From NCBI GenBank assembly GCA_964609905.1, contig CAZSUH010000002.1, positions 3,148-67,147 of the forward strand: a stretch of 64,000 bases of DNA. The letters run 5' to 3'. The translations under genes were made by a program, and so were the position numbers. The number at the start of each line of letters is the position of its first letter. Position 1 is the stretch's first letter. Below are positions 1 to 57,387 of this stretch, piece after piece. Under the pieces are notes generated by a model. It did no database searches. It worked only from the letters and a program-made list of their open reading frames with translations, and was not told where the DNA came from. Source of the stretch: an uncultured Verrucomicrobiota bacterium. Its GTDB lineage: Bacteria > Verrucomicrobiota > Kiritimatiellia > CAIKKV01.

Positions 1-90
1 CGCCAACCCCGAATGCCGTCTTGAGCCAAGCAGAAGGGTGGAGTAGGATAGGGGCTTGTTGGCATCAGGCGGTTTATCGCGGGAGGCGAC

Positions 91-1518: not shown

Positions 1519-1520
1519 TC

Positions 1521-3475: not shown

Positions 3476-3556
3476 TTCCCAGGCCCGATTCCGCGATACT
3501 ATCTTCCTTAACCCGTGGCCGGAAAGAACCCGCTGCGGGGAAACAAGGAGATGACC

Positions 3557-3742: not shown

Positions 3743-3755
3743 GAGGACCCGGATC

Positions 3756-4196: not shown

Positions 4197-4224
4197 AAAG
4201 CCGGACGAGAAAACCGATTGAGGC

Positions 4225-4259
4225 AACGGAGGAGTCCTTTGGGGTTCCTCCGTTTTTTA
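4225..4259 (+). terminator. Rho-independent terminator after the SOR gene, partly bidirectional
   Basis: 8-9 bp GC-rich stem aacggagga / tcctccgtt with a 12-nt loop, followed by a T-run (TTTTTTAT). It sits between convergent genes. Confidence 0.55.
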
Positions 4260-4265
4260 TGCCGG

Positions 4266-24835: not shown

Positions 24836-25999
24836 CTACCCGTTCGGGGTGTCGGGCCCGAGCGTGGCCAACACGATCGCGGCGGCGCGATCTTCGGCGC
24901 CGGGTCCGCCCAGCCGGCTGATCACCTCGTCCAGGCCGTTCAGCATGGATGCCCGTTCGGGCGTAGGCGCGAGCAGGGGCTGAAGGGCCGCCGAAAGGGA
25001 TTCGGCCGACAGGGCATGCTGAACCAGTTCCGGGCACAGCTCGCGGCCCGCGATCAGGTTGACCATGCCAATGTGGGGCACCCGGACCAGGAGTTTGGCG
25101 AGGGCATACGAAACCGCGGCGATGCGATAGACGACCACCATGGGGCAGCGCATGAGCGCTGTTTCCACCGTGGCCGTGCCCGACGCCACGGCGGCGGCGG
25201 TCGCCTGTTTGAGGACTTCCCGGGTTTGCCCGCCGACCACGGATAGCCGCGCGGGGCGCGGGCCGGCATGGTGCGCGAGCCGTTCCCGCATGGCGGCGGC
25301 GTCGGTTTCCGTGGGCGTGGCAATGAGGCAGGAGAGGTCGGGAAAGGAGCGATTGAGCAGGCGGGCGGCGGCGAGTTGGACGGGAAGGAGGCGGTCGATT
25401 TCTCCCCGCCGGCTGCCGGGCAGAAGGGCCAACCGGGGCGCACCCTCGGGCCAGGGCAGGGGGGCGGGCGGGGCGGTCCGGATGGCCTGGGCCACGGCGA
25501 CCAGCGGATGACCGACAAAATCGATGGCAATTCCGGAGCCGGCCAACTGATCCTTTTCGAACGGAAAGAGGGTCAGTAGCCGGTCCACGGAGCGGGCCAT
25601 GAGGGGAATGCGGCCGCGGTGCCAGGCCCAGACCTGGGGACAGACGTAGTAGATGACCGGAATGCCGAGCCGGCGGGCGCACGCCGCGAAGCGGATATTG
25701 AAGCCGGGATAGTCCACCAGGATCACGGCGGCCGGCCGCCGGACTTTCGCGACCGCCTCCAGGCGATGGAAGACCCGGATGAAAAAGGGGAGGCGCGTGA
25801 TGACCTCGGTGAAGCCGACAACCGCCATGTCCGCGCTGTCCTGGAGGATCTCCATGCCCTCGGCGCGGAGCGCGTCCCCGCCGATCCCGAAAAAGCGAAG
25901 AGCGGGATCGCGGCGTTTCAGGGCCTGCACCAGGCCGGCGGCGAGCATGTCGCCCGACACCTCCCCGGCGATGACCATGAGTTCGCGTCCGGCCATCAA
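24836..25999 (-). CDS. lpxB: Lipid-A-disaccharide synthase
   Basis: GT19 family. Motif: MVIAGEVSGDMLAAGLVQALK...PGSRRGEI. Confidence 0.8.
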   Translation of the reverse strand: MMAGRELMVIAGEVSGDMLAAGLVQALKRRDPALRFFGIGGDALRAEGMEILQDSADMAVVGFTEVITRLPFFIRVFHRLEAVAKVRRPAAVILVDYPGFNIRFAACARRLGIPVIYYVCPQVWAWHRGRIPLMARSVDRLLTLFPFEKDQLAGSGIAIDFVGHPLVAVAQAIRTAPPAPLPWPEGAPRLALLPGSRRGEIDRLLPVQLAAARLLNRSFPDLSCLIATPTETDAAAMRERLAHHAGPRPARLSVVGGQTREVLKQATAAAVASGTATVETALMRCPMVVVYRIAAVSYALAKLLVRVPHIGMVNLIAGRELCPELVQHALSAESLSAALQPLLAPTPERASMLNGLDEVISRLGGPGAEDRAAAIVLATLGPDTPNG

Positions 26000-26943
26000 G
26001 AGCCTCCGGCGCGGATATGGCGGCAGATATCGATGGCCAGGTGGAGCGCCTCGGAGGCGCGGCGTCCGTCCACCACCGGCTCCTGGCGGTTACGCACGCA
26101 GGCGATGAAGGAGGCGAGTTCGCGCTCGAGCGCGTCGCTCTTTTCGATGGGCACCTCGGTGGGCACGATCCGGTTCTCCTCCTTGCGGATCAGGCGGGCA
26201 CTCTGGTTCTGGTAATCGAGCGAGAGATAGGTGTCTGGCTGGAAGACGCGGATTTTGCGCATCTTGTCCAGGCTTACCCGGGAGGCGGTGACATTGGCCA
26301 CGCAGCCGTTTTCGAACAGGAGCCGGACGTTGGCGATATCCTCGCTGGGGCTGAGGACGGGCACGCCGCAGGCGTGCAGTTCTTTGAGCGGGGAGCGGAC
26401 CAGATGGAGGATGACCTCCAAATCGTGGATCATGAGATCGAGTACCACGCTGACCTCCGTGCCGCGCGGGGCGAGGCCGGGGCGGGGAGGCGGGAAAGGG
26501 GCCAGGCGGGTGGCTTCGATAAAGCGGGGGCTCGTGAGCGCCTGCTCCAGGAAGGACATGACGGGATTGAACCGCTCCACATGGCCGACCTGGAGGATAA
26601 GGCTGCGCCGGGCGGCGGCGGCCACCAGGGCCTCGGCCTCCTCCATGGTGGAGGCGATGGGTTTTTCCACGAGCAAATGAAGGCCGCGTTCGAGCAGGGG
26701 CAGCGCTGTTTCGGCGTGCCGGTCGGTGGGCACGACGATGCTGGCCGCGTCGACCTGCGCAGCGAGCGCGGCGGGGGAATCGAACACGCGCGTGCCGTAG
26801 CGGGCCGCGATTTCCCGGGCCCGGGCGGGATCGGCGTCGCACACGCCGACGAGGGTGGCGCCGGGGCAGGAGGCGAACACTTTGGCGTGCCACTGGCCGA
26901 GGCTGCCGACCCCGATGACGCCCACTTTAACCGAATCGTTCAT
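25996..26943 (-). CDS. Gfo/Idh/MocA-family NAD-dependent oxidoreductase (GnnA-like candidate) embedded in the lpx cluster
   Basis: Rossmann fold VKVGVIGVGSLGQWH and an EKP motif. 4-bp overlaps on both sides, with lpxI upstream and lpxB downstream. Confidence 0.6.
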   Translation of the reverse strand: MNDSVKVGVIGVGSLGQWHAKVFASCPGATLVGVCDADPARAREIAARYGTRVFDSPAALAAQVDAASIVVPTDRHAETALPLLERGLHLLVEKPIASTMEEAEALVAAAARRSLILQVGHVERFNPVMSFLEQALTSPRFIEATRLAPFPPPRPGLAPRGTEVSVVLDLMIHDLEVILHLVRSPLKELHACGVPVLSPSEDIANVRLLFENGCVANVTASRVSLDKMRKIRVFQPDTYLSLDYQNQSARLIRKEENRIVPTEVPIEKSDALERELASFIACVRNRQEPVVDGRRASEALHLAIDICRHIRAGGS

Positions 26944-27781
26944 GACCGGAATCCACCGCTGCGAGGCTGATCGACCACTCATCCGCGGCGCGGATCAGCC
27001 TGTCGCGCTCCAGCAGGATGGTCCGGCCGGCTTCCACGGCCAGCACGGATGCTTTGACCTTGCGCAGCCCTTCGAGCGTGCGCATGCCGATGACGGGAAT
27101 ATCGAAACGGACATCGTGGCCGAGTTTGGCGACCTTGACCACGACGATGCCCGGGCCGCCCAGTTCGCCGGCACGGCGGATGGCGGCGTCCGTGCCCTCG
27201 AACGCCTCGACCGCCAGCACGACGCCATCCTTGAGTACCACGGTCTGGCCGATATCGAGTCCGCTGGTGTGTTTGGCCACCTTGAGTCCGAGCGCGATAT
27301 CCCGGGCCTCCGTCTCCGACGGCGAGCGGCGGGTCAGGTTTCCGGGCGCGGGCATGGCGCTTTGCATGAACATCCAGGCGGGGAGCAGGTCGATGCCGGC
27401 GGCGCGCAGTTCCTCCGCGATGGCGCCGAAGATCGTCTCCGCGTTTTTCACGGGCAGCCGGCGGAGGAGGGCCAGGGCCCGGGCGTCGAAGCGGAGCGAG
27501 AAGAGGCTGGTCGGGGTGATCAGGCCGGCCATGACGGCGTGGGGGATGCCCAGGGGCGCGAGGGCGGCGAGCAGTTTGTCGAGGCTGCCGAGGCGCAGCC
27601 AGGTGACCGCGTCGGCCCACTTTTCGAGCTTGCGGTCGGTCTCGCCCTTGAAAGCGATGACGTGGAGGCGCTTGACCCCTTGCTGCCGGGCGGAACAGGC
27701 CAGTTCCAGGGGATACGCGCCTTTGCCCGCGATCAGGATGATGGCGTCGGGTGTGGCGGGGAGTGGCTTTTGCTCATTCAT
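26927..27781 (-). CDS. lpxI: UDP-2,3-diacylglucosamine hydrolase LpxI (DUF1009)
   Basis: DUF1009 architecture, ~280 aa. The position immediately upstream of lpxB matches the canonical lpxI locus. Confidence 0.6.
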   Translation of the reverse strand: MNEQKPLPATPDAIILIAGKGAYPLELACSARQQGVKRLHVIAFKGETDRKLEKWADAVTWLRLGSLDKLLAALAPLGIPHAVMAGLITPTSLFSLRFDARALALLRRLPVKNAETIFGAIAEELRAAGIDLLPAWMFMQSAMPAPGNLTRRSPSETEARDIALGLKVAKHTSGLDIGQTVVLKDGVVLAVEAFEGTDAAIRRAGELGGPGIVVVKVAKLGHDVRFDIPVIGMRTLEGLRKVKASVLAVEAGRTILLERDRLIRAADEWSISLAAVDSGHERFG

Positions 27782-27903
27782 CTTGGCCGGGGATTATAGG
27801 AAGAAACAGGTTGGGAAGCGAACCAATTCAGGAATTTTCTTGTCTGTGTTTAAAAAATCATATTAAATAACAGTGACGCGTTTTTTGGTACGGGGGCGAC
27901 TGT

Positions 27904-30900
27904 ATGAAATTCACTTTTTCGCTGTTATTCCTTTGCGGACTGTTCGGCTTCATGTCGGGCCGGGATTGCGATGCGGAAAACGTCGTGGCTTGGGGCAATA
28001 ACCTGTACGGCCAGACGAACGTGCCGGCCGGTTTGGGCGATGTGCGAGCGGTCTCGGCAGGCGGGTATCACAGCCTGGCGCTGCGGACGGACGGGACGGT
28101 CTCGGCATGGGGCTATAATGTGGTTGGGCAGACAAATGTGCCGTCCGGGTTATGCAACGTGGTGGCGCTGGGGGCGGGGTATGCGCACAACCTGGCGTTG
28201 CGGGGGGACGGGACGGTGGTGGCGTGGGGCCTAAACTCGTACGGGCAAACGAACGTTCCGGCCGGATTAAGCAACGTGGTGGCGGTGGCGGGGGGGGGAT
28301 GGCACAGCCTGGCGTTGCGGGCTGACGGGTCGGTGGTGGCCTGGGGATACAACGAGTATGGGCAGACAAATGTGCCGGCAGGATTGAGCGGCGTGACGGC
28401 GATCGCGGCGGGAACCTATCATAACCTGGCGTTGCGGGCGGACGGGACGGTCGTCGCCTGGGGGTGGAACGCGCGCGGACAAACGAATGTGCCTGTTTCA
28501 GTGAGCAACGTGGTGGCGGCGGCAGCGGGCGTGGAGCACAGCCTGGCGTTGAAGGCGGATGGGACGGTGGCGGGCTGGGGATACAACGGGTATGGGCAAC
28601 GGTCTATTCCGGCTGGTTTAAGCGACGTGACCGAGGTGGCGGGCGGCGATTATCACAGCCTGGCCTTGCGGGCGGACGGGTCCGTGGTGGTGTGGGGGTA
28701 TAACAGCTCCGGCCAGACGAATGTGCCGGCGGGGCTGAGCAACGTGGCCGCGATCGATGCGGGGGATTATCACAATCTGGCGGCCGTGGAAGTCGGCGCG
28801 CCGGTGGCCTTTCCGATGGTCAGGCAGACCGTCATAGGCGGTGGTAAATGCCTGTTTTTAAGAGCGGTGGCGGCGGGCGCCCGTCCGATGCAGTTTCAAT
28901 GGGAGCGCGATGGTGAGCCGGTCGGCGGACAGACGAACGCCGTTCTGGCCGTCCGGGACTCCCTGCCCGGCGAGAAAGAGTACCGGTGCGTGATCTCGAA
29001 TGCGTGGGGCGCGGTCACGAGCGACACGGTGCGGGTGACGGTGGGGAACCTGGCGGCCTGGGGGTGGAACGAATACGGCCAGACCGCCTTGCCGCAGGAG
29101 GTCACCAACGCGGTGGCGGTGGCGGCGGGTGGTTTCCACGGCCTGGCGTTGCGGTCGGATGGAACCCTGGCGGGTTGGGGCTTGAACGGGTATGGGCAGG
29201 CGGCGGCGCCGGCGGGGCTGAGCAACGTGACGGGTGTGGCGGCGGGGTATACGCATAGTCTGGCCTTACGGACCGATGGGACCGTGATGGCCTGGGGGGA
29301 AAACGATGTCGGGCAGACGAATGTGCCGGTGGGACTGAGCAACGTGACGGCGGTGGCGGCGGGGGGACGGCATTGTCTGGCGGTGCGGGCGGATGGGACA
29401 CTGACCGCCTGGGGGGCCGACGACTGTGGCCAGGCGGTTCCGCCGGCGAACTTGAGCAGTGTCGTGGCGGCGGCGGCGGGGGAACGGCATAGCCTGGCGT
29501 TGCGCGCGAACGGAACGGTGACCGTCTGGGGCGACAACACCTATGGGCAGAAAAATGTGCCGGCGGGTCTGCGCCAGGCGGCGGCCGTGGCGGCGGGGGC
29601 GTATCACTGTCTTGCGGTTCGGGTGGATGGAACGGTGATGGCCTGGGGGCGGAACACGGAAGGCCAGACGACCGTGCCGGCGGGCTTGACCAATGTGGTG
29701 GCGGTGGGCGCGGGGTGGGGGCACAGCGTGGCGGTGCGCGCGGACGGCACCGTGACGAATTGGGGCTTGAGCGGCCGGGGGCAGGGTGATATTCCCCCGG
29801 GGCTGAGCAATGTGACGGCGATCGCGGGGGGCGATTACCACACGCTGGCGTTGCTGGGGTCGGGCGCTCCTGTCGCGCTCCCGCTGGTCGGGCAGCTTTC
29901 GGTGGCGGCGGGGCAGATGCTGTATGTGCGAGCGGAGGCCGCGGGCGCGCGGCCGATGCACTATCAGTGGGAGCGTGATGGAAACGCCGTCGCCGGCCAG
30001 ACGGGGGCCGTGCTGTCCGTGCGGGACGTCGTGCCCGGAATCAAGGAGTACCGCTGCGTGATCGCCAACGCCCGCGGCGTGACCACCAGCGGCGTGGCGC
30101 GGGTCAGCGTGGCCAATGTCGCATTATGGGGCGGGCAGTATCTCAGCCAGCTCAACCTGCCGCCGGGCTTGAACAACGCGGTGGCTGCGGCGGGCGGGGG
30201 CAGTCATGGCCTGGCGTTGCGGGCGGACGGCACGGTGGCGGCGTGGGGCGAGAACGATTACGGGCAAACGGCGGTCCCGGCGGGGTTGAGCAATGCGGTG
30301 GCCATCGCGGCGGGAGTGCGGCACAGCTTGGCGCTGCAGGCCGACGGCGCGGTGCGCGCATGGGGCGCGAACGATTCCGGTCAGACGAATGTGCCGGCGG
30401 ATTTAAGAGGGGTGACGGCGGTGGCGGCGGGTGGCAACCACAGCCTGGCGCTGGAAGCGGACGGCACGGTGACGGCGTGGGGGGAAAACGAGGCCGGTCA
30501 AACGGCGGTCCCGGCGGAGGTGAGCAATGGGGTGGCTATCGCGGCGGGGTTGGACCATAGCCTGGCGTTGCGGGCCGACGGCACGGTGGTGGCGTGGGGC
30601 GCGAACGAGGCCGGGCAATCGGATGTGCCGGTGGGTTTGACCAATGCGGTGGCGGTGGCGGCGGGCGGCAGTCATAGCCTGGCCTTGCGGGCGGACGGGA
30701 CGATCGTGTCGTGGGGGTCGAACGATCTGGGCCAGCGCAATCTACCGGCGGGGCTGAGCAACGGGGTAACGGTGGCGGCGGGTTACCGGCACAGCCTGGC
30801 GCTGCGCGCGGACGGCACGGTGGCCATGGCGGGCTGGAACGAATATGGACAGCAGGAGGCGCCGCCGGGGTTGAGCAACGTGGCGGCCGTGGCGGCGGGT

Positions 30901-33900
30901 TGGAGCCAGAGTCTGGGTGTGTGTGGCGTCGGCGCGCCGGTGGCGCTGCCGATGGTGGAACAGGCCGTGGTGGTCGCGGGAGACGGCCTGTTTCTCCAGG
31001 CCGGGGTGCTGGGCGCCTGGCCGCTGGCCTATCGCTGGGAGCGGAACGGCGAGCCCCTGGAGGCGCCGCCGGGGGCGGTGCTGAGGGTGTGGGGCACGGT
31101 TCCGGGAGTCGGGGAATATCGTTGCGTGATTTCCAACGCTTATGGCGTGACCACGAGCGGCGTGGTGCGCGTGACGGTGGATCCGTTGCGGATGCGAACC
31201 CATCCGCTCCGGGGGACGCCGTATCTCGGGCAAACCTGGGCGTTTGCCGCGGACGCCTACGGCGTGCCGCCGATTCGGTACCAGTGGATGAAAAACGGGA
31301 TCCCGATTGTAGGGGAAACAGGAACGACGTTAGCCGTGACGGACTGCGGCTTCGGCGATTCCGGCGAGTATCGCCTGATCGCGTCGAACGCCCTGGCGGT
31401 GGCGACGTCGGATGTCGCGCGCCTGACGGTGGTGAACGTGGCCGCCTGGGGCGATAACGGATGGGGGCAAACGGCGATTCCGGGGAATTTGACCAATGCG
31501 GCGTCGGTGGCGGCGGGCGAGAATCACAGTCTGGCGTTGCGGGCGGACGGGACGGTGGCGGCCTGGGGTTGGAACGGATACGGGCAGACGGCCGTGCCGG
31601 CGGGGCTGATCAACATGACGGCCGTCGCGGCCGGCGCCTGCCACAGCCTGGCGTTGCGGGCGGACGGGACGGTGGCGGCCTGGGGTTGGAACGAATACGG
31701 GCAGGCGGCCGTGCCGACGGGGCTGAGCAACGTGACGGCCGTCGCGGCCGGAGCCAATCACTGCCTGGCGCTGGCGGCGGACGGCCGGGTGTCGGCGTGG
31801 GGGGATAACGATTACGGGCAAACGAACCTGCCGGCGGGCTTGAGCAACGTGACGGCCATCGCGGCGGGGGATATTTTCAACCTGGCACTGGGGGCGGACG
31901 GCCGGGTGTGGGCGTGGGGCAATAACGACGATGGGCAGACGAACCTGCCGGCAGGCTTGAGCAACGTGACAGCCATCGCGGCGGGCGTGGCGCATGGCCT
32001 GGCGTTGCGGGCGGATGGGACCGTGGCGGCCTGGGGTTGGAACGAGTATGGGCAGGCGAACGTGCCGGCCGGACTGAGCAACGTGACGGCCGTGGCGGCG
32101 GGATCGACGCACAGCCTGGCGGTGCGGGCGGACGGCTCCGTGATGGTGTGGGGGCATAACGGCGCCGGCCAGACGAACGCGCCGGCGGACTTGCGCCATG
32201 TCGTGGCGGCGGCGGCGGGCGGCCAGCATGCGCTGGCGTTGCTGGGAACGGACGCGCCGGCGCCGGCGCCGATGGTGGAGCGGACGGTGGTGGTGGCGGG
32301 CGGCGGCCTTTTTTTGAGGGCGGGCGTGCTGGGCGCCTGGCCGATGGCTTATCGATGGGAACGGGACGGCATTCCCGCGGCCGGTCAAACGGGGGCGGTG
32401 CTGGCGGTGAATAATGCGGAAATGGGGACATGGAATTACCGCTGCGCGGTTTCGAACGCGTGGGGCGCGACCACGAGCGGCGTGGTGCGCGTGACGGTGG
32501 AACCGTTGCGGGTGAGCCTGCATCCCCGGGGAGGCATCCGCTATCTAGGGCAGAGCTGGTCGTTCACCGGGGCGGCTTACGGCGTTGAGCCGATCGGGTA
32601 CCAGTGGTTCAAAGACGGCGTGGCGATGGCCGGCGAAACCGGAACCACGTTTTCCGTGGCGGCCTGCGGGTTGGCGGATTCCGGCGATTATGGCATGGTG
32701 GCCTCGAACGCATTGGGAAGCGTGACGTCCGCCCTGGCGCGGTTGGCGGTCGTGAATGTGGCGGCGTGGGGGTATGACGGGCAGGGCCAGACGGACGTGC
32801 CTTCGGATTTAAGCAATGCGGTGGCCGTTTCCGCGGGCTATGTGTTCAGCCTGGCGTTGCGCGAGAACGGCCGGGTGGCCGTCTGGGGGGCCGGCGGGAT
32901 GGGCCAGTGGGATGTGCCCGCGGGATTGACCAACGCGGTGGCCGTGGCGGCGGGGTACGATCATGCCTTGGCGCTGCGGGCGGACGGGACGGTGGCGGGA
33001 TGGGGCGACAACACTTCGGGTCAGGCGACGCCGCCGGAGGGGTTGAACAACGTGACGGCGGTGGCGGGTGGCGTCGACCACAGCCTGGCATTGCGGGCGG
33101 ACGGGACGGTGGCGGCCTGGGGCGACAACGGGCAGGGCCAAACGGCTGTGCCGGGCGATGCAAGCAATGTGACGGCCATCGCGGCCGGGGATCGGCATAA
33201 CCTGGCGCTGCGTGCGGACGGGACGGTGGCGGCGTGGGGCAATAATTATTTCGGGCAGACGGATGTGCCGGCGGGGTTGAGCAATGTGGCGGCGGTGGCG
33301 GCGGGCGGCTCGTTCAGTCTGGCGCTGCGGGAAGACGGATCACTCGTGGCCTGGGGCTACAACTACTACGGGCAGACGAATGTGCCCCCGGATCTGCTCG
33401 ACACGGCGGCGGCGTCGGCGGGTGGAAGCCACTGCCTGGCCCTGCGGCAAAGCGGAACGGTTGAAGCGTGGGGGAATGACGGGAGCGGAGAGACGGATGT
33501 GCCGGCGGATTTGAGGCACGTGACGGCGGTGGCGGCGGGCGGCGCCCACAGCCTGGCCGTTCAGTGGACAGGCGCGCCCCGGCCGGCTCCGATGGTGGGC
33601 GAGGCCGCAACCGCGCCGGGTCGTCTGCTGTTTTTAAGAGCCGGCGCCTTGGGCGGCCGACCGATGGCGTTCCGGTGGGAGTGCGACGGCGTCCCCGTAA
33701 TCGGATCGGCTGGTCCTGTCCTGAAAGTCGAGGAAACGACCCCCGGGGCGCGGGAATACCGCTGCGTGATCTCGAATGCCTGGGGCGTGGCCACCAGCGC
33801 CGTGGTGCGGGTGACGGTGGGCAATCTCGTGGCCTGGGGAAACGGGGAAGAGGGGCAGACGGATGTTCCTTTCGACACGAATATCGCGGCGGTGGCCGCG

Positions 33901-36900
33901 GGCGCCTACCACAGCCTGGCGCTGCGGATGGATGGATCGGTCGCGGCCTGGGGTTGGAATGGATATGGGCAGACGGATATTCCGGCCGGGCTTAGCAACG
34001 TCACGGCACTCGCAGCGGGAGAAAACCACAGTCTGGCGCTGCGCGCGGATGGGACGGTGCTGGCCTGGGGCGGCAATGGAAGCGGTCAAACGAACGTGCC
34101 GGCGGGCCTGGTTGACGTTCAGGATGTGGCGGCGGGCGGCGCCCATTCTCTCGCCTTGCGGGCGGACGGGACCGTGGCGGCCTGGGGTGGGAATGAATAT
34201 GGGCAGACCGATATTCCAACCGGCCTCAGCAACGTCACGGCGATCGCGGCGGGAGAAAACCACAATCTGGCGCTGCGGGCGGATGGAACGGTGGCGGCCT
34301 GGGGGAATGGCGGGCAGGGGCAGACCAATGTGCCGGTTGAACTCGGCAACGCGGTGGCGGTGGCGGCGGGCGGGTATCACAGCCTGGCGCTGCGTGCGGA
34401 CGGGACGGTGCTGGCCTGGGGATCGAACAACGAAGGCCAGACGAATGTGCCGGCGGGGCTGAGCAACGCGGTGGCGGTGGCGGCGGGCGAGAAGCACAGC
34501 CTGGCATTTCTGGCGGACGGGACGGTGATGGGCTGGGGCGATAACGGGAGCGGCCAGTCCGCGCCCCCGTCGGGCTTGAGCCACGTGACGGCGGTGGCGG
34601 CGGGCGGAAGCCACAGCCTGGCGGTTTTGTGGGGCGCGGCGCCGGCGCCGGCGCCGATGGTGGACCGGGTGGAAACGGCGGCCGGCCGGCCGTTCTATCT
34701 CCGGACGCGCGCGTTGGGCGGTTGGCCGATGCGGTATCAATGGGAGGTGAACGGCGCGGCCATCGACGGGCAGACAAACGCCGTGCTGACGGCGCGGGAA
34801 ACGAGCCCCGGCCTGCGGGAATACCGGTGCGTGATTTCGAATGCCTGGGGCGCAACCACGAGCCGCGTGGTGTCCGTGAACGCGGCTTGTGTCGCGGCCT
34901 GGGGGCAGAACGAATTCGGCCAGGCCGACGTGCCGCGGGGGTTGTCGGACGTGATGGCGATGTCCGCGGGGGGCTATCACAGTCTGGCGCTCAGGAGGGA
35001 CGGAACGGCGAAAGCCTGGGGCCTGAATGGGAACGGTCAAGCCCATGTGCCGCCGGGCTTGAGCAACCTGACCGCGATCGCGGCGGGCGGGTATCATAAT
35101 CTGGCGTTGCGGGAAGACGGGACGCCGGTCAGTTGGGGTAACGCGTCCTATGGCCTGACGAATATTCCCGCGGGGTTAACCCAGGCGGTGGCCGTGGCCG
35201 CGGGGAATGTCCACAATCTGGCGCTGCTTGCGAATGGCACGGCTGCGGCCTGGGGCTATGGCGGGAATGGGCAGACGAATGTGCCGGCGGGGTTGAGCAA
35301 TGTGACCGCGATTGCGGCCGGCGGCTACCATAATCTGGCGCTGCGGGTGGACGGCTCCGTCGTGGCGTGGGGGTGGAACGAGTATGGGCAGACGAACGTC
35401 CCGGCGGGGTTGAGCAACGTGACGGCGGTGGCCGCCGGCCTGAACCACAGCCTGGCGGTGTTGGCGGACGGAACCCTGGTGGCGTGGGGACGCAACGAAA
35501 TGGGCCAGGGGGATATCCCGGCCGGTCTGAGCAATGCGGTCGAAGCGGCGGGCGGGGATTACCACAGCGTGGCGTTGCGGGCGGATGGAACCCTGGCGGC
35601 CTGGGGGCATAACAGCGACGGGCAAGCGGTCGTGCCGGAGGGATTGAGCAATGGGATGCGCGTGGCGGCCGGGTATTATCACAATCTGGCGGCGCTGGGA
35701 TCCGGCCCGCCCGCGGTGGCGCCGATGGTTCGACAGGCGGAGTTGATCGCCGGCCAGACGGTGTGTTTGCGGGTTGCGGCATCCGGCGGCCGCCCGATTC
35801 GATATCAATGGGAGCGAAACGGCGAGCGCTTGGACGGGCAAACCGGCGCCATGCTGGCGGTGACGGCGCAGGCTCTCGGAGACTGGGAATACCGGTGCGT
35901 GATTTCGAATGCCCTGGGCGTGATCACCAGCGGAGTGGTGCGCGTGGCGGTGAAGCCCCCGCGGGTGTCGATTGACCGGACGACCCTGAATGTGCCCGAA
36001 GGCGGGACCGCGCAATTCGGCGTCAAATTGAGCGCCCAGCCGACCGGGGAGACCGTGGTGGCGGTGGCGCGGGTGTCGGGCGACGCGGATATCGCGGTCA
36101 GCGCGGGAGCGTCGCTCACGTTCACGCCGGGTAATTGGGACGCGTATCAGGCCGTGACCCTGGCCGCGGCCGAGGACGACGGGGATCAGGCGAACGGCGC
36201 GGCGACGATCCGGTGCGGCGGCGTGGACGTGATCCCCGCGGAACTCGCGGCCATCGAGGCGGATGACGACGTCTTGCTGACGGTGAACTCGCCGTATGGC
36301 GTCGTGAGCAGGAATCCGGACCAACCGTATTATGAAACGGGATCCGTGGTGACGCTCACGGCATCGCCACGCGCGTCCTATGTCTTTGTCGGGTGGAGCG
36401 GCGGCGCGAGCGGGGCCGCCAATCCGGCGGCCGTGACGATGGACGGCGACAAGACGGTGACGGCGAACTACGGGCCCGTCAAACCCGTCGTGTTGCCGCC
36501 GCGGACGATCGCCGCGAAATCCTTCACGGCCCGTTGGAGATGGGTGGAAGGCGGGGCGCCGGAGGGGCAGTTAAGCGTCGCCACGGATGCCGCGTTCACC
36601 AAGCCGGTCGCGGGATACCAGAACCGGTACGTGGCGAACGTTTCGGAATGGCTTGTCACGGGGTTGCGTTCCGGGATCACCTATTGGTATCGGGTGCGGC
36701 GCGTATTGCCGGGGGGCGAGTTGAGCGGCTGGTCGACCGCCATGAAAGTGCGGACCGGGAAAGGGCTGCCGGCTTTCAAGAACCTGCTGAACGACGGCCC
36801 GGCGGCCCGGGGCGTGAAGCAGCAGTTTGCGGTGGCCAACCTGGCGGCCGGCCGCGGCGTGTTGACGGTGAAATCCTCCAATCTGAACGGGGTCAAGCCG

Positions 36901-37599
36901 GTGTTGTCGGGCGGCGTGTTGACCCTGCAACAGCTCTGGAAGGCGCCGGTCAAGTCGGCGAAGCTGACGTTCACGCTGACGCATGCGGCCACCGGCTACA
37001 AGGCCTCCTATCAGGCCACCCTGAGCCGGGCCGGGGGGAGCGTGGCGATTATCGGAAAATCGGCCCTCACCAATGCCGGGACCCGCGCGGCCCAGGAACT
37101 CACGTTGGAAAACCGGACGGGCGGAAGGGTGTATGGGCTCAGGGTCCGGGCGCTGGGGTTGGACCGGGCGGCGTGGCTGATCAACCGAACCGGGCTGGAC
37201 CCGGTCAGCAAGGCGGCGATATTGGAGATCCCCTGCGTATGGCCGGCGAGTTCGCAGATGGTGGTGCGGTTGATTTACAACATTGCCTATAAGAAGCAGG
37301 CTAAGACGCGGCCGGTGACGTATGGCGCGTGGGCGATTCTGACGCCGGTGGGCGGGGCGGGCCCGGTTCACCGGGAGCTGGCGGTGGGGCAGCGGGAGTG
37401 GTATGACGGACTGTGGCTGCTCGGGTTGCCGGCCAACCGCAACCGGCGCTACACGGTCTACCACTCGGATGATAACGGGGCCACCTGGACGCCGGATGCG
37501 CCGGCGATCCGCGCGACGGCCAATTATCTGATGTGGCTGGATATGGACGAGGCGGCGCCGGAGGGGCGTCTCTACCGGGTGTTGGATACGGGGCTGTGA
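27904..37599 (+). CDS. Giant secreted multi-propeller protein (3231 aa)
   Basis: Single uninterrupted ORF. Signal peptide: MKFTFSLLFLCGLFGFMSG. About 49 tandem ~40-aa RCC1-type repeats (COG5184-like), consensus AAG..HSLALRADGTV.AWG.N.YGQT.VP.GLSNV. They are organised as seven 7-bladed propellers, each followed by an Ig-like domain with motif YQWERDG...EYRCVISNA.G..TS.VVRVTV; two of the seven modules carry a second, tandem Ig. After the repeats come an Ig/cadherin-like domain, an InlB-B-repeat-like domain (LTVNSPYGVVSRNPDQ...VFVGWSGG), an FN3-like domain, and a ~290-aa C-terminal domain of unknown function. The module period is ~1070 bp. Confidence 0.8.
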   Translation: MKFTFSLLFLCGLFGFMSGRDCDAENVVAWGNNLYGQTNVPAGLGDVRAVSAGGYHSLALRTDGTVSAWGYNVVGQTNVPSGLCNVVALGAGYAHNLALRGDGTVVAWGLNSYGQTNVPAGLSNVVAVAGGGWHSLALRADGSVVAWGYNEYGQTNVPAGLSGVTAIAAGTYHNLALRADGTVVAWGWNARGQTNVPVSVSNVVAAAAGVEHSLALKADGTVAGWGYNGYGQRSIPAGLSDVTEVAGGDYHSLALRADGSVVVWGYNSSGQTNVPAGLSNVAAIDAGDYHNLAAVEVGAPVAFPMVRQTVIGGGKCLFLRAVAAGARPMQFQWERDGEPVGGQTNAVLAVRDSLPGEKEYRCVISNAWGAVTSDTVRVTVGNLAAWGWNEYGQTALPQEVTNAVAVAAGGFHGLALRSDGTLAGWGLNGYGQAAAPAGLSNVTGVAAGYTHSLALRTDGTVMAWGENDVGQTNVPVGLSNVTAVAAGGRHCLAVRADGTLTAWGADDCGQAVPPANLSSVVAAAAGERHSLALRANGTVTVWGDNTYGQKNVPAGLRQAAAVAAGAYHCLAVRVDGTVMAWGRNTEGQTTVPAGLTNVVAVGAGWGHSVAVRADGTVTNWGLSGRGQGDIPPGLSNVTAIAGGDYHTLALLGSGAPVALPLVGQLSVAAGQMLYVRAEAAGARPMHYQWERDGNAVAGQTGAVLSVRDVVPGIKEYRCVIANARGVTTSGVARVSVANVALWGGQYLSQLNLPPGLNNAVAAAGGGSHGLALRADGTVAAWGENDYGQTAVPAGLSNAVAIAAGVRHSLALQADGAVRAWGANDSGQTNVPADLRGVTAVAAGGNHSLALEADGTVTAWGENEAGQTAVPAEVSNGVAIAAGLDHSLALRADGTVVAWGANEAGQSDVPVGLTNAVAVAAGGSHSLALRADGTIVSWGSNDLGQRNLPAGLSNGVTVAAGYRHSLALRADGTVAMAGWNEYGQQEAPPGLSNVAAVAAGWSQSLGVCGVGAPVALPMVEQAVVVAGDGLFLQAGVLGAWPLAYRWERNGEPLEAPPGAVLRVWGTVPGVGEYRCVISNAYGVTTSGVVRVTVDPLRMRTHPLRGTPYLGQTWAFAADAYGVPPIRYQWMKNGIPIVGETGTTLAVTDCGFGDSGEYRLIASNALAVATSDVARLTVVNVAAWGDNGWGQTAIPGNLTNAASVAAGENHSLALRADGTVAAWGWNGYGQTAVPAGLINMTAVAAGACHSLALRADGTVAAWGWNEYGQAAVPTGLSNVTAVAAGANHCLALAADGRVSAWGDNDYGQTNLPAGLSNVTAIAAGDIFNLALGADGRVWAWGNNDDGQTNLPAGLSNVTAIAAGVAHGLALRADGTVAAWGWNEYGQANVPAGLSNVTAVAAGSTHSLAVRADGSVMVWGHNGAGQTNAPADLRHVVAAAAGGQHALALLGTDAPAPAPMVERTVVVAGGGLFLRAGVLGAWPMAYRWERDGIPAAGQTGAVLAVNNAEMGTWNYRCAVSNAWGATTSGVVRVTVEPLRVSLHPRGGIRYLGQSWSFTGAAYGVEPIGYQWFKDGVAMAGETGTTFSVAACGLADSGDYGMVASNALGSVTSALARLAVVNVAAWGYDGQGQTDVPSDLSNAVAVSAGYVFSLALRENGRVAVWGAGGMGQWDVPAGLTNAVAVAAGYDHALALRADGTVAGWGDNTSGQATPPEGLNNVTAVAGGVDHSLALRADGTVAAWGDNGQGQTAVPGDASNVTAIAAGDRHNLALRADGTVAAWGNNYFGQTDVPAGLSNVAAVAAGGSFSLALREDGSLVAWGYNYYGQTNVPPDLLDTAAASAGGSHCLALRQSGTVEAWGNDGSGETDVPADLRHVTAVAAGGAHSLAVQWTGAPRPAPMVGEAATAPGRLLFLRAGALGGRPMAFRWECDGVPVIGSAGPVLKVEETTPGAREYRCVISNAWGVATSAVVRVTVGNLVAWGNGEEGQTDVPFDTNIAAVAAGAYHSLALRMDGSVAAWGWNGYGQTDIPAGLSNVTALAAGENHSLALRADGTVLAWGGNGSGQTNVPAGLVDVQDVAAGGAHSLALRADGTVAAWGGNEYGQTDIPTGLSNVTAIAAGENHNLALRADGTVAAWGNGGQGQTNVPVELGNAVAVAAGGYHSLALRADGTVLAWGSNNEGQTNVPAGLSNAVAVAAGEKHSLAFLADGTVMGWGDNGSGQSAPPSGLSHVTAVAAGGSHSLAVLWGAAPAPAPMVDRVETAAGRPFYLRTRALGGWPMRYQWEVNGAAIDGQTNAVLTARETSPGLREYRCVISNAWGATTSRVVSVNAACVAAWGQNEFGQADVPRGLSDVMAMSAGGYHSLALRRDGTAKAWGLNGNGQAHVPPGLSNLTAIAAGGYHNLALREDGTPVSWGNASYGLTNIPAGLTQAVAVAAGNVHNLALLANGTAAAWGYGGNGQTNVPAGLSNVTAIAAGGYHNLALRVDGSVVAWGWNEYGQTNVPAGLSNVTAVAAGLNHSLAVLADGTLVAWGRNEMGQGDIPAGLSNAVEAAGGDYHSVALRADGTLAAWGHNSDGQAVVPEGLSNGMRVAAGYYHNLAALGSGPPAVAPMVRQAELIAGQTVCLRVAASGGRPIRYQWERNGERLDGQTGAMLAVTAQALGDWEYRCVISNALGVITSGVVRVAVKPPRVSIDRTTLNVPEGGTAQFGVKLSAQPTGETVVAVARVSGDADIAVSAGASLTFTPGNWDAYQAVTLAAAEDDGDQANGAATIRCGGVDVIPAELAAIEADDDVLLTVNSPYGVVSRNPDQPYYETGSVVTLTASPRASYVFVGWSGGASGAANPAAVTMDGDKTVTANYGPVKPVVLPPRTIAAKSFTARWRWVEGGAPEGQLSVATDAAFTKPVAGYQNRYVANVSEWLVTGLRSGITYWYRVRRVLPGGELSGWSTAMKVRTGKGLPAFKNLLNDGPAARGVKQQFAVANLAAGRGVLTVKSSNLNGVKPVLSGGVLTLQQLWKAPVKSAKLTFTLTHAATGYKASYQATLSRAGGSVAIIGKSALTNAGTRAAQELTLENRTGGRVYGLRVRALGLDRAAWLINRTGLDPVSKAAILEIPCVWPASSQMVVRLIYNIAYKKQAKTRPVTYGAWAILTPVGGAGPVHRELAVGQREWYDGLWLLGLPANRNRRYTVYHSDDNGATWTPDAPAIRATANYLMWLDMDEAAPEGRLYRVLDTGL
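27970..35800 (+). repeat. In-frame tandem coding repeat array (120-bp RCC1 blade units grouped in ~1.07-kb super-repeats), containing near-identical DNA copies
   Basis: Example: ctggcgttgcgggcggacgggacggtggcggcctggggttggaacg occurs at ~31531 and ~31651. A second motif, gacgaacctgccggc.ggcttgagcaacgtgac.gccatcgcggcggg, occurs at ~31823 and ~31943. Ig-domain starts recur at ~28890, 29960, 31030, 32350, 33670, 34735 and 35805. Confidence 0.75.
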
Positions 37600-37633
37600 G
37601 GGCGGGGCGTCCGGCGGGAATGCCCGGAATGCT

Positions 37634-37662
37634 TGACAAAACGGGGGATTGCGGGTAGTTTT
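37634..37662 (+). promoter_or_regulatory. Sigma70-like promoter (TTGACA-17-TAGTTT) for the ispD operon
   Basis: Consensus -35, 17-bp spacer, then RBS AGAGAGG at 37672 and ATG at 37687. Confidence 0.45.
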
Positions 37663-37686
37663 AAGTTTCAAAGAGAGGATGTTCCC

Positions 37687-38364
37687 ATGAATTTCGGCGT
37701 TGTGGTGGCGGCCGGCAAGAGCGAGCGCATGGGCGCCGGCATCGACAAGGCCTTTTTGAATCTCGGCACCAAACCGGTTCTGGCTTTTTCCCTGCTGGCA
37801 TTCGAAAATTGCCCGGACATCGAGGGTGTCATTCTGGTGGTTCGCAAGGACCGAATGGACGCGGCGCGGGGGCTGGTTCAGATTTTCGGCTGCTCGAAAG
37901 TTCAGCGCATCGTGGCGGGCGGCGCCACGCGCCAGGAATCGGTGATCAACGGCCTGGCGGAACTTCCGGAGGGCGTGGCCCAGGTGGCCGTGCATGACGG
38001 GGCCCGGCCCTGCGTGCGGCCTGAACTGATTTCTGAAACCTTGAAAAGCGCCAAGCGGTACGGTTCAGGTGTCGCGGCCATCAAGATCACCGACACCTTG
38101 AAAGAGGTTCAGCACGGCTTTGTGGTCAGCAAAACGGTGGACCGTCAGAAACTCTGGGCGGTGCAGACGCCGCAGTCCTTCAAAACCGCCCTGTTGCAGG
38201 AGGCGTTCCGGGCGCTGAAGGCCGGGAAGTTGCAGGTGACGGACGAAGCGTCGGCCGTGGAACTGCTGGGCCAACCGGTACACCTGGTTCCCTCGTACCG
38301 GGCCAATCTGAAAATCACCACCACGGAAGATCTGGTTGTTGCCGAAGCGCTGTTGAAGACGTGA
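37687..38364 (+). CDS. ispD: 2-C-methyl-D-erythritol 4-phosphate cytidylyltransferase
   Basis: GVVVAAGKSERMG N-terminus and VHDGARP motif. Monofunctional, with no fused IspF. Confidence 0.8.
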   Translation: MNFGVVVAAGKSERMGAGIDKAFLNLGTKPVLAFSLLAFENCPDIEGVILVVRKDRMDAARGLVQIFGCSKVQRIVAGGATRQESVINGLAELPEGVAQVAVHDGARPCVRPELISETLKSAKRYGSGVAAIKITDTLKEVQHGFVVSKTVDRQKLWAVQTPQSFKTALLQEAFRALKAGKLQVTDEASAVELLGQPVHLVPSYRANLKITTTEDLVVAEALLKT

Positions 38365-39137: not shown

Positions 39138-40079
39138 GTGGGCGCCTTTCGCCATCTGTTCGGACCGGTGCTTTCCAGGCGGCTGGGCCTGTCGCTCGGC
39201 ATCGACCTGGCGCCCGCGAAGACCTGTTCCTACGATTGCGTGTTCTGCCAGATCGGCCGGACGCCGGCGACCACGATCGAGCGGGCGCGTTATGTGCCCG
39301 AGTCGGACGTGCTGGCGGAATTCGACGCCTGGCTGGCGTCCGGCGGCCGCGCCGATCACCTGACGTTGGCGGGCGCGGGCGAGCCGACCCTGCATGCCGG
39401 TTTTGGCGAGGTGCTGGAGGGGCTTCGGGCGCGCAGCGCCATTCCCACCGTGCTGATGAGCAATGGATCGTTGTTTTTCATGCCCGACGTGCGGGCCGCC
39501 GCCGCGCGCGCCTCGATCGTCAAGGTTTCCTTGAGCGGATGGGACGAAGCGTCGTGGCGCCGCGTCAACCGGCCGCATGCCGCGTTGCGGTTCGAGCGGG
39601 TGCTGGAGGGGTTGCGGGCGTTCGCCTCCGGCTATGCGGGCGCGTTGTGGGTGGAGGTGTTCCTGGTGCGGGGTGTCAACGACGCGCCGGACCAGGCGGC
39701 CCGGATCGCGGCGTTGGTCAATCCGCTGCATCCCGCCCGCGTGCATCTGAACACGGTGGCACGCCCTCCGGCTGACGCTGACGCCCGAGCGGTGGACGGG
39801 GCGTCGATGCGCGCCCTGGCGGGCCTGTTCCAGCCGGCCGCGGAAACGCCGGAGGCGCCGACGCTCCGCGCGGGGCCGGCGGAGGGCGCCTCGGGCGGGT
39901 TGCTGGAGACAGTGGTCCGCCATCCCGCCACGCTGGAACAACTGGCCCTGTCCCTGAATCGGGATGTCGATGGGCTGGCGGCGGAGTTGCGGGAGCTGGA
40001 GCGGGCGGGACGGGTGGAACGGTGCGAGGCGGGCGGCGCCGTGTTTTACCGGGGGGCGGTCAATCCATCCGCGGGTTGA
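39138..40079 (+). CDS. Radical SAM domain protein, function unknown
   Basis: CSYDCVFCQ (CX3CX2C) near the N-terminus and a glycine-rich SAM motif AGAGEPTLH. GTG start 4 nt after the upstream stop. Confidence 0.6.
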   Translation: MGAFRHLFGPVLSRRLGLSLGIDLAPAKTCSYDCVFCQIGRTPATTIERARYVPESDVLAEFDAWLASGGRADHLTLAGAGEPTLHAGFGEVLEGLRARSAIPTVLMSNGSLFFMPDVRAAAARASIVKVSLSGWDEASWRRVNRPHAALRFERVLEGLRAFASGYAGALWVEVFLVRGVNDAPDQAARIAALVNPLHPARVHLNTVARPPADADARAVDGASMRALAGLFQPAAETPEAPTLRAGPAEGASGGLLETVVRHPATLEQLALSLNRDVDGLAAELRELERAGRVERCEAGGAVFYRGAVNPSAG

Positions 40080-41241
40080 TATGGCCGGTGGCGGGATCGA
40101 CCAGTTTTTCCATGTAGCGTTCGATTTCCGTGTCGTACTCGGCGTCGATATCCATTTTCGCGAACTGGCGCTGGACGCCGCGCAGGCCCCGCATACTGCC
40201 GGAGGCTTCGCGGGCGGAGCGGAAACGCTGCCGGGGATTCGGGTGAAGCATTTTTCTGAGGATGGACAGGAGCAGGTCGTTCTCCACCACGTACGGCGGG
40301 AGCCAGGTTTCGATCCGGGCGGGTAGCGCGAGTTTGGCCGCGAGCAGATCCTCGTCCCGGGATAGCGCGGGATCGATCGGGATCCGGCCGCCGAGCAGTT
40401 CCACGGCCAACAGGCCGAGGCTGTACATGTCCGACTGGGGCAGGCCGGGTTCGAGGCGGTGGATTTCCGGGGCCATGTAGAGGGGGCTTCCGAGCTGGAT
40501 GCTGACGCATTCCCCGATCCGGGCGGCGCGGCCGAAATCGACGCTGCGAATGCCGCCGTTGCGGTCCACCATGATGTTGGAAGGCTTGATGTCGCCGTGC
40601 AGGAACCCGGCTTCATGCAGTTCCTCGAGTCCGGCCAGCACCTCCCTCAGGATATGGACCGCGATGCCCGGCGTGAGCAGAATCCGGTCGCCCTGGAGGC
40701 GGAAGATGACGTTCATGAAGTGCTGCCATTCCTCGTCCGAGCTCTGGCCGCGGGCGATCGCGATGTGGCCGGCGCTGAGGAAATACTGGAGATTGATGCC
40801 GTCCACGGCGTTCATCTGGACGAAGCCGATTCCGTCGCATTCGTCGTACAGGTCGCAGGCGATGAGGTTGTCGTGGTGGGTCGGCTGCAGGAGCGAGATC
40901 TGGGCGGCGATGCGCTCCATGTCGGTCCAGTAGCGTTCGGCGCTGGAGTAGATGGAGGGGTCGAAGAACTTCAACGCGTGGCGGGTGCGGCAGCCGCGGG
41001 CGCCCTGTCGGACGGCGAGGAAGACGATGCCCTGGCGCCCTTTGCCGAGTGCCTGGATGAAATGGTAGGCCACCGGATGTCGCAGCACGCCCTCCCGGAC
41101 GATGGTCGCGTAGGCGCCGATCAGATTCAGGCGTTCGGCATCCGGGGAAACCCGCGGATCCGATTCCTCCAGAATCGTGGCGGGCGGAAGTTCAGTGAAT
41201 CGGCTGGTGGCGCCGGGATTGGGAACTGGTTCTGTGGTCAT
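40060..41241 (-). CDS. Hanks-type serine/threonine protein kinase
   Basis: HGDIKPSNIMV catalytic loop, DFG, SPLYMAPE and ALKFF (VAIK-like) motifs. Its 3' end overlaps the convergent radical SAM gene by ~20 bp. Confidence 0.75.
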   Translation of the reverse strand: MTTEPVPNPGATSRFTELPPATILEESDPRVSPDAERLNLIGAYATIVREGVLRHPVAYHFIQALGKGRQGIVFLAVRQGARGCRTRHALKFFDPSIYSSAERYWTDMERIAAQISLLQPTHHDNLIACDLYDECDGIGFVQMNAVDGINLQYFLSAGHIAIARGQSSDEEWQHFMNVIFRLQGDRILLTPGIAVHILREVLAGLEELHEAGFLHGDIKPSNIMVDRNGGIRSVDFGRAARIGECVSIQLGSPLYMAPEIHRLEPGLPQSDMYSLGLLAVELLGGRIPIDPALSRDEDLLAAKLALPARIETWLPPYVVENDLLLSILRKMLHPNPRQRFRSAREASGSMRGLRGVQRQFAKMDIDAEYDTEIERYMEKLVDPATGHINPRMD

Positions 41242-46180: not shown

Positions 46181-47330
46181 ATGAATGAGGATGTCCTGGC
46201 AAGGCTGGACGCGATTCGCGGCCGGCTCGCGGAAATGAGAGGTTATCTTTGACGTCGACGGACGCCGCACCCGGGTAACCGAACTGGAGCGCCGCACCTC
46301 GGCGCCCGATTTCTGGAACGATCCCAACAAGGCCCGCGAGTTGCTGGATCAGGTGACCCGCGAGCGGGACATCCTGAATCCCTTCGACGCGCTCGTCAAG
46401 CGCGCCGAAGACGCCGCCGTGCTCCTCGAGATGGCCGGCGCGGAAAACGACCCCGACATGGCCCGGCTGGCCGCGGAGGAAGCCGAGTCCGATCTCGCGC
46501 CGCTCGAAAAGGCCGTGATCGCCATGGAGCTCAAATCCATGCTGAGCGGTCCCCTGGATCGGAACAACGCATTCCTGACGCTGCACGCGGGCGCGGGCGG
46601 CACGGAGGCCTGCGACTGGGCCGCCATGCTGATGCGCATGATCCGGCGGTATTGCGAAAACAAGGGATTCAAGGTCGATCTGCTGGACTTTCAGGACGGC
46701 GACGAAGCCGGCTTGAAAAGCGCGTCACTCCAGGTGAGCGGACCCTATGCCTACGGCTATCTCCGATCCGAGCGAGGCGTGCACCGGCTGGTGCGCATCA
46801 GCCCGTTCGATTCCAACAAGCGGCGCCACACGTCGTTCGCCTCGTTGGATGTGACCGCGGAGATCGACGACTCGATCGAGATCGAGGTCCTGGACGCCGA
46901 CATACGGGTCGATACGTTCCGCTCCAGCGGCGCGGGCGGGCAGCACGTCAACAAGACGGATTCGGCGATCCGGCTCACGCACCTGGCCACGGGGTTCGTG
47001 GTGTCGTGCCAGACCCAGCGGTCGCAGCACCAGAATCGCGCGCAGGCCATGAAGATGCTCAAGTCGAAGCTCTACGAACTGGAACTGGACAAGCAGCGGC
47101 GGGAGATGGACCGGTTTTACGGGGACAAGGGCGACATCTCCTGGGGCAACCAGATCCGCTCCTACGTCCTGCAGCCCTATACGCAGGTGAAAGACGAGCG
47201 CACCGAGCTGAAAACGTCCAATGTGCAGGCGGTGCTGGACGGCGATTTGGACGAGTTTGTGGAAGCGTATCTGAAAAAACAGCGATTGGCCGGATCGCCC
47301 ACACCGGGAGAAGACACGCATGTCACTTAG
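46181..47330 (+). CDS. prfB: Peptide chain release factor 2 with a programmed +1 ribosomal frameshift (frame 0 46181..46249, then +1 frame 46251..47330)
   Basis: ORF1 (MNEDVLARLDAIRGRLAEMRGYL) ends at the canonical CTT TGA C shift site at 46247..46253. The site is preceded by an SD-like AGAGG. The +1 frame continues as DVDGRRTRVTELE... into a protein with the SPF and GGQ motifs. Confidence 0.85.
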
Positions 47331-57336: not shown

Positions 57337-57387
57337 CCAAGGCCGGTTTTCATGAGATAATTTACCGCTTTGAGATAAAGGACCGGC

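Follow-up and report, generated by a model that had tools for sequence, protein, structure and literature searches.

A predicted seven-propeller protein of BLIP-II type and its shared C-terminal cassette in an uncultured Kiritimatiellia bacterium

BLIP-II is a secreted 28-kDa propeller of seven blades, each of an unusual three-stranded build, that binds with picomolar to femtomolar affinity (PMC6121496) and contacts its target via beta-turns on the apical side and loops between the blades (bioRxiv 10.1101/2024.08.26.609822). The RCC1/BLIP-II group to which it belongs is the third largest among the highly repetitive propellers, and its members are mostly bacterial (PMC9218822). Giant genes of RCC1 type have furthermore been described in Oscillospiraceae, where the products are predicted to be extracellular and carry no transmembrane anchor (West-Roberts et al., bioRxiv 10.1101/2023.11.21.568195). 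Here we analyse a 9.7-kb gene (referred to as the giant gene, and its product as the giant protein) in a 64,000-nucleotide stretch of DNA (referred to as the window) from an uncultured Verrucomicrobiota bacterium of the Kiritimatiellia (assembly GCA_964609905.1, contig CAZSUH010000002.1, positions 3,148 to 67,147). Its predicted product joins seven propellers of BLIP-II type to immunoglobulin-like (Ig) domains and ends in a C-terminal cassette that also occurs on otherwise unrelated exported proteins of this lineage.

Propeller array and blade variation

The giant gene is a single, uninterrupted and complete open reading frame (ORF) of 3231 codons (27904..37599, forward strand), as the original prediction, made from the sequence alone, had stated. 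Its GC content at the three codon positions (0.68, 0.56 and 0.83) is like that of other real genes in the window, and the predicted mature product has a mass of ~325 kDa and a pI of ~5.7. The signal peptide that had been proposed is visible by eye in the translation and is of Sec type: its n-region is basic, its hydrophobic core spans 14 residues, and positions –3/–1 are occupied by small residues. It is followed by 49 blades in strict register, which fall into seven runs of seven each and measure 39 amino acids (aa) in 48 cases and 38 aa in one. The proposed number of about 49 blades was therefore correct, although the blade is 39 rather than 40 aa long; at the DNA level, blades recur every 117 nt and modules (a propeller together with its Ig portion) every 1065–1068 nt, or 1320 nt where a second Ig domain is present, instead of every 1070 bp. 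The alternation of propellers with Ig domains was likewise borne out, with nine Ig domains of ~83 aa each instead of the seven expected from one per module: one follows each propeller, except that two follow propellers 3 and 4.

Comparison with Pfam supported this architecture throughout. Specifically, RCC1_2 (PF13540) scored 1211 bits against a cut-off of 22 and matched 42 stretches, WD40_RLD scored 1019 bits against a cut-off of 150, the Ig_2, Ig_3 and I-set models matched as well, and the InlB B-repeat model Flg_new_2 matched at aa 2792–2857. Of the models that had been put forward for checking, RCC1_2, I-set and InlB-B gave matches, and Pfam and PDB sequence comparison together agree with the earlier description of RCC1_2-type seven-bladed propellers alternating with Ig domains and followed by an InlB-B repeat and a fibronectin type III (FN3) domain. 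No recognisable catalytic domain was found in the giant protein. An assignment to the 'pure RCC1' class of giant genes was considered and rejected, because the propellers make up only ~59% of the protein, the remainder consisting of the nine Ig domains and a 545-aa tail.

In the PDB, the best match of module 1 (propeller 1 and Ig 1, aa 25–385) was BLIP-II (1jtd_B, E 4.4e-62), and all seven propellers are 42–47% identical to BLIP-II over 259 aa. Eukaryotic RCC1, UVR8 and HERC2 chains, by comparison, matched module 1 at E 1e-6 to 1e-14, the RCC1 match being partial (E 1e-6), and the canonical RCC1 repeat (PF00415) was not among the Pfam families reported for the giant protein. With 39-aa blades, no PF00415 match and such weak matches to RCC1 chains, identity as a canonical eukaryotic RCC1 guanine nucleotide exchange factor was rejected. 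By every sequence criterion applied, the giant protein is a member of the RCC1/BLIP-II propeller superfamily. The original prediction had framed its repeats as a eukaryotic signalling module; this framing is not supported, since the blades are of the short bacterial BLIP-II type and such propellers are mostly found in bacteria (PMC9218822).

The propeller module itself is widespread, a search with one module giving more than 7300 protein matches at E<1e-20, with named matches from Verrucomicrobiota, Actinomycetota, Deinococcus and Clostridia. The 120 best module matches listed measure 377–632 aa each, leaving room for about one propeller, and many of them bear Ig-type Pfam domains too. These word-indexed homologue searches listed proteins only up to ~930 aa and are therefore silent on how rare multi-propeller chains may be.

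Alignment of the 49 blades revealed a near-fixed scaffold (W5, G6, N8, G11, Q12, P16, L19, G28, H31, L33, A34 and G39), and entropy above 2.5 bits at only five blade positions, which lie in two turns, namely 7, 9 and 10 in the WG-x-N-x-x-GQ motif, and 29 and 30 in the AG-x-x-H motif. Residues at these five positions are aromatic in 27% of cases, compared with 8.7% for the protein as a whole. With an offset of 38, the BLIP-II hot-spot tryptophans W53, W152 and W269 would fall at blade positions 10, 30 and 30; BLIP-II can be aligned to the repeats in more than one register, however, so that a one-to-one assignment of residues is not possible. The positions equivalent to the beta-lactamase-binding rim of BLIP-II are the hypervariable ones in the giant protein, and by our own mapping the five variable positions would include the BLIP-II binding hot spots. 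This confinement of blade variation to loops is a new result, and the blade pattern fits seven heads that would be built on one scaffold, each with an apical rim of its own.

In a neighbour-joining tree, the seven propellers cluster together, apart from the propellers of relatives and on long branches. Either an ancient amplification inside the gene or a degree of concerted evolution would fit this pattern, and the tree does not separate the two. The array presents a clean natural case of BLIP-II-type propellers amplified to seven heads with five rim positions varying per blade and, because BLIP-II reaches femtomolar affinities, is relevant to the evolution of binding scaffolds and to binder engineering.

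Relatives of the gene and the C-terminal cassette

An exact look-up of the giant protein returned no exact or near-identical copy on record. Among 45 related metagenome loci, whose lpxI is 55–64% identical to the one next to the giant gene, an RCC1 array near lpxI was present in only one (L017, metagenome contig Ga0118677_10000130). The multi-propeller gene of this locus runs off the fetched sequence and encodes at least 1566 aa, comprising a signal peptide, at least three full repeats of a seven-blade RCC1_2 propeller with two Ig domains, and then a partial fourth propeller. Its product is ~50% identical to the giant protein over 1500 aa and differs from it in having two Ig domains after every propeller seen and insertions in some blades. 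The gene is divergent from the lpxI-gfo-lpxB cluster at a distance of ~5.3 kb, with two other ORFs between it and lpxI. The L017 gene indicates that the propeller-Ig architecture recurs independently.

The last 545 aa of the giant protein comprise a ~100-aa domain with the pattern VPEGG...LTFT..NW...EDDGD...DDD (referred to as the VPEGG domain), an InlB-B repeat, the FN3 domain and 280 further residues. The VPEGG domain gave no Pfam match and no significant PDB sequence match. Together with the InlB-B repeat it forms a unit that is present once in the giant protein and in one to six copies in relatives, being repeated in L005, L015 and P0054. A fold search with the whole 372-aa C-terminal cassette, which runs from the FN3 domain to the end, matched FN3 only; the last 280 aa were then modelled separately with AlphaFold, yielding three tandem Ig-like beta-sandwiches, the third of lower confidence and with one Asp-box (SDDNGATW). 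What had been described as one uncharacterised C-terminal domain of ~290 aa is thus modelled as three.

The earlier reading had also missed that this tail is not private to the giant gene. The last 372 aa are 50–66% identical to the extreme C-termini of 17 database proteins, and at 14 loci ORFs terminate in the cassette; these loci lie in six metagenome-assembled genomes (MAGs) labelled as Kiritimatiellia, Planctomycetes-Verrucomicrobia-Chlamydiae (PVC) group or 'Verrucomicrobiota', a single genome having as many as four copies. The full cassette was found in ~20 of 1.84 billion cluster representatives, always C-terminally and with matches spanning positions 1–371. An exhaustive profile search with the cassette was swamped by FN3 arrays, and a profile of its non-FN3 part found nothing outside the tight family. 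No further copy was found in the window. The giant protein fits a family that we define by a 372-aa FN3 and three-sandwich end, preceded by at least one VPEGG and InlB-B unit, on a chain with a signal peptide; such peptides are visible on the cassette proteins whose N-termini were inspected.

The passengers carried by the cassette differ widely. According to Pfam, they include BACON with GLUG domains, papain-type C1 peptidase with a lectin-like domain, leucine-rich repeats (LRR) of BspA type, gingipain-type C25 peptidase and, in one protein, LamG together with one RCC1 propeller and six VPEGG and InlB-B units; Kelch- and NHL-like repeats were in addition read by eye from the translations. The occurrence of a shared C-terminal cassette on otherwise unrelated passengers is a new result. 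At the 14 loci (L002–L015), one ORF exceeds 3705 aa (L009), and two related genes stand in tandem at L011.

Described anchors and sorting signals were considered for the giant protein and set aside. A type IX secretion system (T9SS) cargo would be expected to carry a Por_Secre_tail (PF18962 / TIGR04183) or type B sorting domain, neither of which was found in a Pfam scan of the tail (E<=10) or an NCBIfam scan of the whole protein (E<=0.01). In the translation, the C-terminus (...RLYRVLDTGL) lacks the hydrophobic segment of an LPXTG or PEP-CTERM anchor, and the N-terminal LFLC continues into the hydrophobic core and does not fit the lipobox of a lipoprotein.

Genomic setting, assembly and other genes in the window

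The giant gene lies among housekeeping genes (Table 1). On its divergent side these are lpxI, a GFO-type oxidoreductase gene and lpxB; downstream of it follow ispD and genes for a metallophosphoesterase, a radical-SAM protein, a Ser/Thr kinase and SecA. The proposed setting between lpxI and ispD was confirmed by these flanks; no accessory genes adjoining the giant gene were seen in the window, and genes for type IV or type III secretion are absent nearby. The divergent intergenic region had been proposed as a promoter region of its own, and is indeed AT-rich, although a sigma-70 consensus scan found no site within it. More generally, scans for sigma-70 sites and terminators yielded nothing above shuffled expectation, and no terminator-like site was seen after the giant gene.

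Table 1. Coordinates of the giant gene's domains, its upstream flank and the multi-propeller relative (window positions, except for L017, which is numbered along its own fetched locus)
Feature	Coordinates	Strand	Remarks
Sec-type signal peptide, aa 1–24, MKFTFSLLFLCGLFGFMSGRDCDA followed by E	27904..27975	+	read by eye from translation
Propeller 1, aa 26–298, 7 x 39-aa BLIP-II/RCC1_2 blades	27979..28797	+	46% identity to BLIP-II
Ig domain 1, I-set/Ig_2 type, aa 299–381	28798..29046	+	
Propeller 2 (aa 382–654) and Ig 2 (aa 655–737)	29047..30114	+	
Propeller 3 (aa 738–1010), Ig 3a (aa 1011–1094) and Ig 3b (aa 1095–1177)	30115..31434	+	1320-nt spacing
Propeller 4 (aa 1178–1450), Ig 4a (aa 1451–1534) and Ig 4b (aa 1535–1617)	31435..32754	+	
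Propeller 5 (aa 1618–1890) and Ig 5 (aa 1891–1973)	32755..33822	+	
Propeller 6 (aa 1974–2245, first blade 38 aa) and Ig 6 (aa 2246–2328)	33823..34887	+	
Propeller 7 (aa 2329–2601) and Ig 7 (aa 2602–2686)	34888..35961	+	
VPEGG...EDDGD...DDD domain, ~100 aa, aa 2687–2790	35962..36273	+	
Divergent InlB B-repeat (Flg_new_2), aa 2791–2859	36274..36480	+	Pfam E 3e-13
FN3 domain, aa 2860–2951, start of the 372-aa C-terminal cassette	36481..36756	+	
Last 280 aa of the cassette, aa 2952–3231, three tandem Ig-like beta-sandwiches	36757..37596	+	AlphaFold
lpxI	26927..27781	-	divergent neighbour upstream of the giant gene
AT-rich divergent intergenic region, presumed promoter	27782..27903		122 bp, 41.8% GC vs 68.8% in the gene
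L017 multi-propeller gene	1..4698	-	at least 1566 aa, runs off the fetched locus

Mis-assembly of the repeats had been named as one of the things that could overturn the prediction. The repeat units are 60–79% identical to each other in DNA and the modules 52–62% identical in protein, the longest exact repeat in the giant gene measures 46 nt and no 55-mer occurs twice. Because of this divergence, collapse of the assembly is unlikely; the ORF is open throughout. An identical lpxI was found on a 2-kb Logan contig, which ends just before the giant gene, so that the array is not independently confirmed there. An exact look-up of the metallophosphoesterase gene after ispD found no match on record.

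Antisense and out-of-frame ORFs within the giant gene are by-products of its repeats of 69% GC, and the antisense ORFs (for example 33634..35097, reverse strand, 487 aa) are regarded as artefacts. The GC skew in 28000..36000 reaches 0.22–0.28 inside the giant gene, about twice that of the flanks, which is probably a compositional effect of the Gly/Ala/Trp-rich repeats (GGN and GCN codons) and no replication signal.

The start of ispD is ambiguous (37633..37690): the ORF lister placed it at a TTG at 37633, and an ATG at 37688 stands behind the Shine-Dalgarno-like AGAGAGGA. The TTG at 37633 sits in a TTGACA hexamer, and ispD may have a promoter of its own just past the giant-gene stop. No ispD match was present in any of the 45 related loci. 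On the other side, the order lpxI, GFO/IDH/MocA oxidoreductase, lpxB (24836..27781, reverse strand) is kept in most of these loci (L016–L060), which suggests a role for the oxidoreductase in making or modifying lipid A in this group.

Elsewhere in the window, prfB, encoding release factor 2 (46181..47330, forward strand), bears a classic programmed +1 frameshift, with a leader of 23 codons running from the ATG at 46181 to CTT TGA C (46247–46253), a Shine-Dalgarno-like AGAGGT before the shift site and the PCRF/RF-1 ORF continuing in the +1 frame. At 56278..59943 (forward strand), a gene for an ATP:guanido phosphotransferase (a McsB-like protein arginine kinase) is followed directly by one for a ClpC/ClpB-type AAA+ chaperone, a pairing best known from Gram-positive bacteria. 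The Ser/Thr protein kinase gene between the radical-SAM gene and secA (40060..41241, reverse strand) is of eukaryotic type. Finally, a 475-aa ORF at 91..1518 (forward strand) has coding-type GC at the third codon position (GC3, 0.86) but matches nothing in Pfam at E<=1e-5.

Proposed role and comparison with known systems

The earlier proposal of an adhesin, scaffold or ligand-trapping protein stays the best general reading of the giant protein. More specifically, we lean towards a Sec-exported, non-enzymatic and multivalent surface binder or adhesin. Following export by Sec, each propeller would serve as a binding head whose apical rim makes the contact, much as BLIP-II engages beta-lactamase; since the rims differ among the seven heads, the sites recognised could differ or be several. 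These heads would be spaced by the Ig domains along a flexible rod of ~80–100 nm (a rough estimate from typical domain sizes), and the shared cassette would be the stalk by which varied passengers are all tethered to the cell envelope or directed there. The giant protein would then function at the surface as an adhesin or ligand-capture device, with either a protein or a glycan as its ligand.

By analogy with the C-terminal domain of T9SS cargo, to which it would be unrelated, it is conceivable, though we put it forward only tentatively, that the cassette, possibly together with the VPEGG and InlB-B unit, is the recognition or attachment module of an undescribed, lineage-specific surface-display pathway in Kiritimatiellia. 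If so, this pathway would bring peptidases and LRR, LamG, Kelch, NHL and BACON proteins to the cell surface, next to the seven-propeller binder.

Several points weigh against these proposals. The propeller fold, with seven blades per ring, is one that we infer from sequence homology, and export, surface location and ligand binding are likewise deduced, the signal peptide having been judged by eye. The placing of the hot spots on the apical rim is tentative, having been obtained by counting along the aligned BLIP-II chain. With lpxI and lpxB present, the organism is diderm, and no pathway was identified by which the protein could cross its outer membrane. In the cassette itself there is neither a barrel nor a hydrophobic anchor nor any recognised sorting motif, the extreme C-terminal residues are not conserved between its two subtypes, and no conserved partner gene was found around the 14 cassette loci.

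The nearest characterised relative of each propeller being an enzyme inhibitor, at 42–47% identity, the giant protein might alternatively be a released, soluble and multi-headed inhibitor, whose seven BLIP-II-like heads would neutralise foreign hydrolases such as beta-lactamases, peptidases or glycosidases with no role in adhesion. The absence of a membrane anchor and the diversified rim positions, as expected for several targets, would agree with this. However, the BLIP-II hot-spot residues cannot be placed given the several registers, and the equivalent positions are hypervariable. Moreover, proteases, LRR and LamG proteins end in the same tail, which speaks for a shared means of localisation rather than for a soluble inhibitor; what BLIP-II does in nature is itself not settled. 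On balance, we consider such an inhibitor unlikely. A structural component of the envelope, forming an S-layer-like or sheath lattice or fibre with no specific ligand, is less probable still, the evidence for it consisting of generic fold matches.

We give very little credence to a eukaryote-directed effector that would be delivered into a host to modulate the Ran/GTPase cycle in the manner of Legionella LegG1/PieG. The repeats do belong to the RCC1 superfamily, and bacterial RCC1-repeat effectors exist in Legionella (PMC7157520). However, eukaryotic RCC1 chains match at E 1e-6 to 1e-14 compared with 4e-62 for BLIP-II, and the 39-aa blades fall short of the ~51–68 aa of RCC1 blades. Sec signal peptides and Ig/FN3 spacers furthermore typify extracellular proteins, type IV and type III secretion genes are absent from the surroundings, and no host is given for the related MAGs or metagenome records. 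An assembly artefact or decaying pseudogene arising from collapsed or chimeric repeats is, finally, barely credible. The contig is of metagenome type and the only other contig with an identical lpxI breaks just before the gene; against this, the frame is open for 9.7 kb at a GC3 of 0.83, the units are too divergent (60–79% identity, longest exact repeat 46 nt, no recurring 55-mer), the scaffold residues are kept in 49 of 49 blades, and an independent relative, L017, has the same architecture.

Taken alone, the surface binder or adhesin that we favour would be one more large exported repeat protein, a type common in PVC bacteria. The cassette, in turn, marks a small and coherent exported set in uncultured Kiritimatiellia, and offers a handle on how these diderms display or release large proteins. 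The T9SS cargo proteins of Bacteroidota resemble this set by analogy only, in that unrelated exported proteins (C25, C1, BspA-type LRR, BACON and LamG) share a beta-sandwich C-terminus. The T9SS C-terminal domain measures ~80 aa, whereas the cassette extends over 372 aa and four domains and has no Por_Secre_tail match; T9SS is not known from Kiritimatiellia.

The original prediction had held that a protein of this kind has no characterised counterpart, which is not supported given that BLIP-II has been characterised (PMC6121496), that one module alone has thousands of matches and that RCC1-type giant proteins have been described (bioRxiv 10.1101/2023.11.21.568195). BLIP-II of Streptomyces exfoliatus (PDB 1JTD, 3QHY) is likewise bacterial and seven-bladed, with short blades of ~39–40 aa, and is secreted, as is predicted here. 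It is, however, a single 28-kDa propeller with no Ig domains, FN3 or tail, whereas seven propellers are joined here in a 325-kDa chain. The bacterial RCC1_2 or 'alpha-tubulin suppressor-like RCC1 family' proteins of Verrucomicrobiota, Actinomycetota and others share the BLIP-II-type module, often with Ig domains; the best 120 listed hold about one propeller each, compared with seven in a regular array and a lineage-specific tail in the giant protein.

The RCC1-type giants of Oscillospiraceae are likewise very long bacterial proteins of many RCC1 propellers with no transmembrane anchor. By the description in the paper, these stem from Clostridia in gut samples and repeat a single RCC1 domain over their whole length, whereas the giant protein is smaller, belongs to the PVC group, has Ig domains between its propellers and carries a conserved cassette at its C-terminus. 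The propeller module is thus common and arrays of it have already been reported; particular to this lineage are the propeller-Ig alternation and the Kiritimatiellia cassette.

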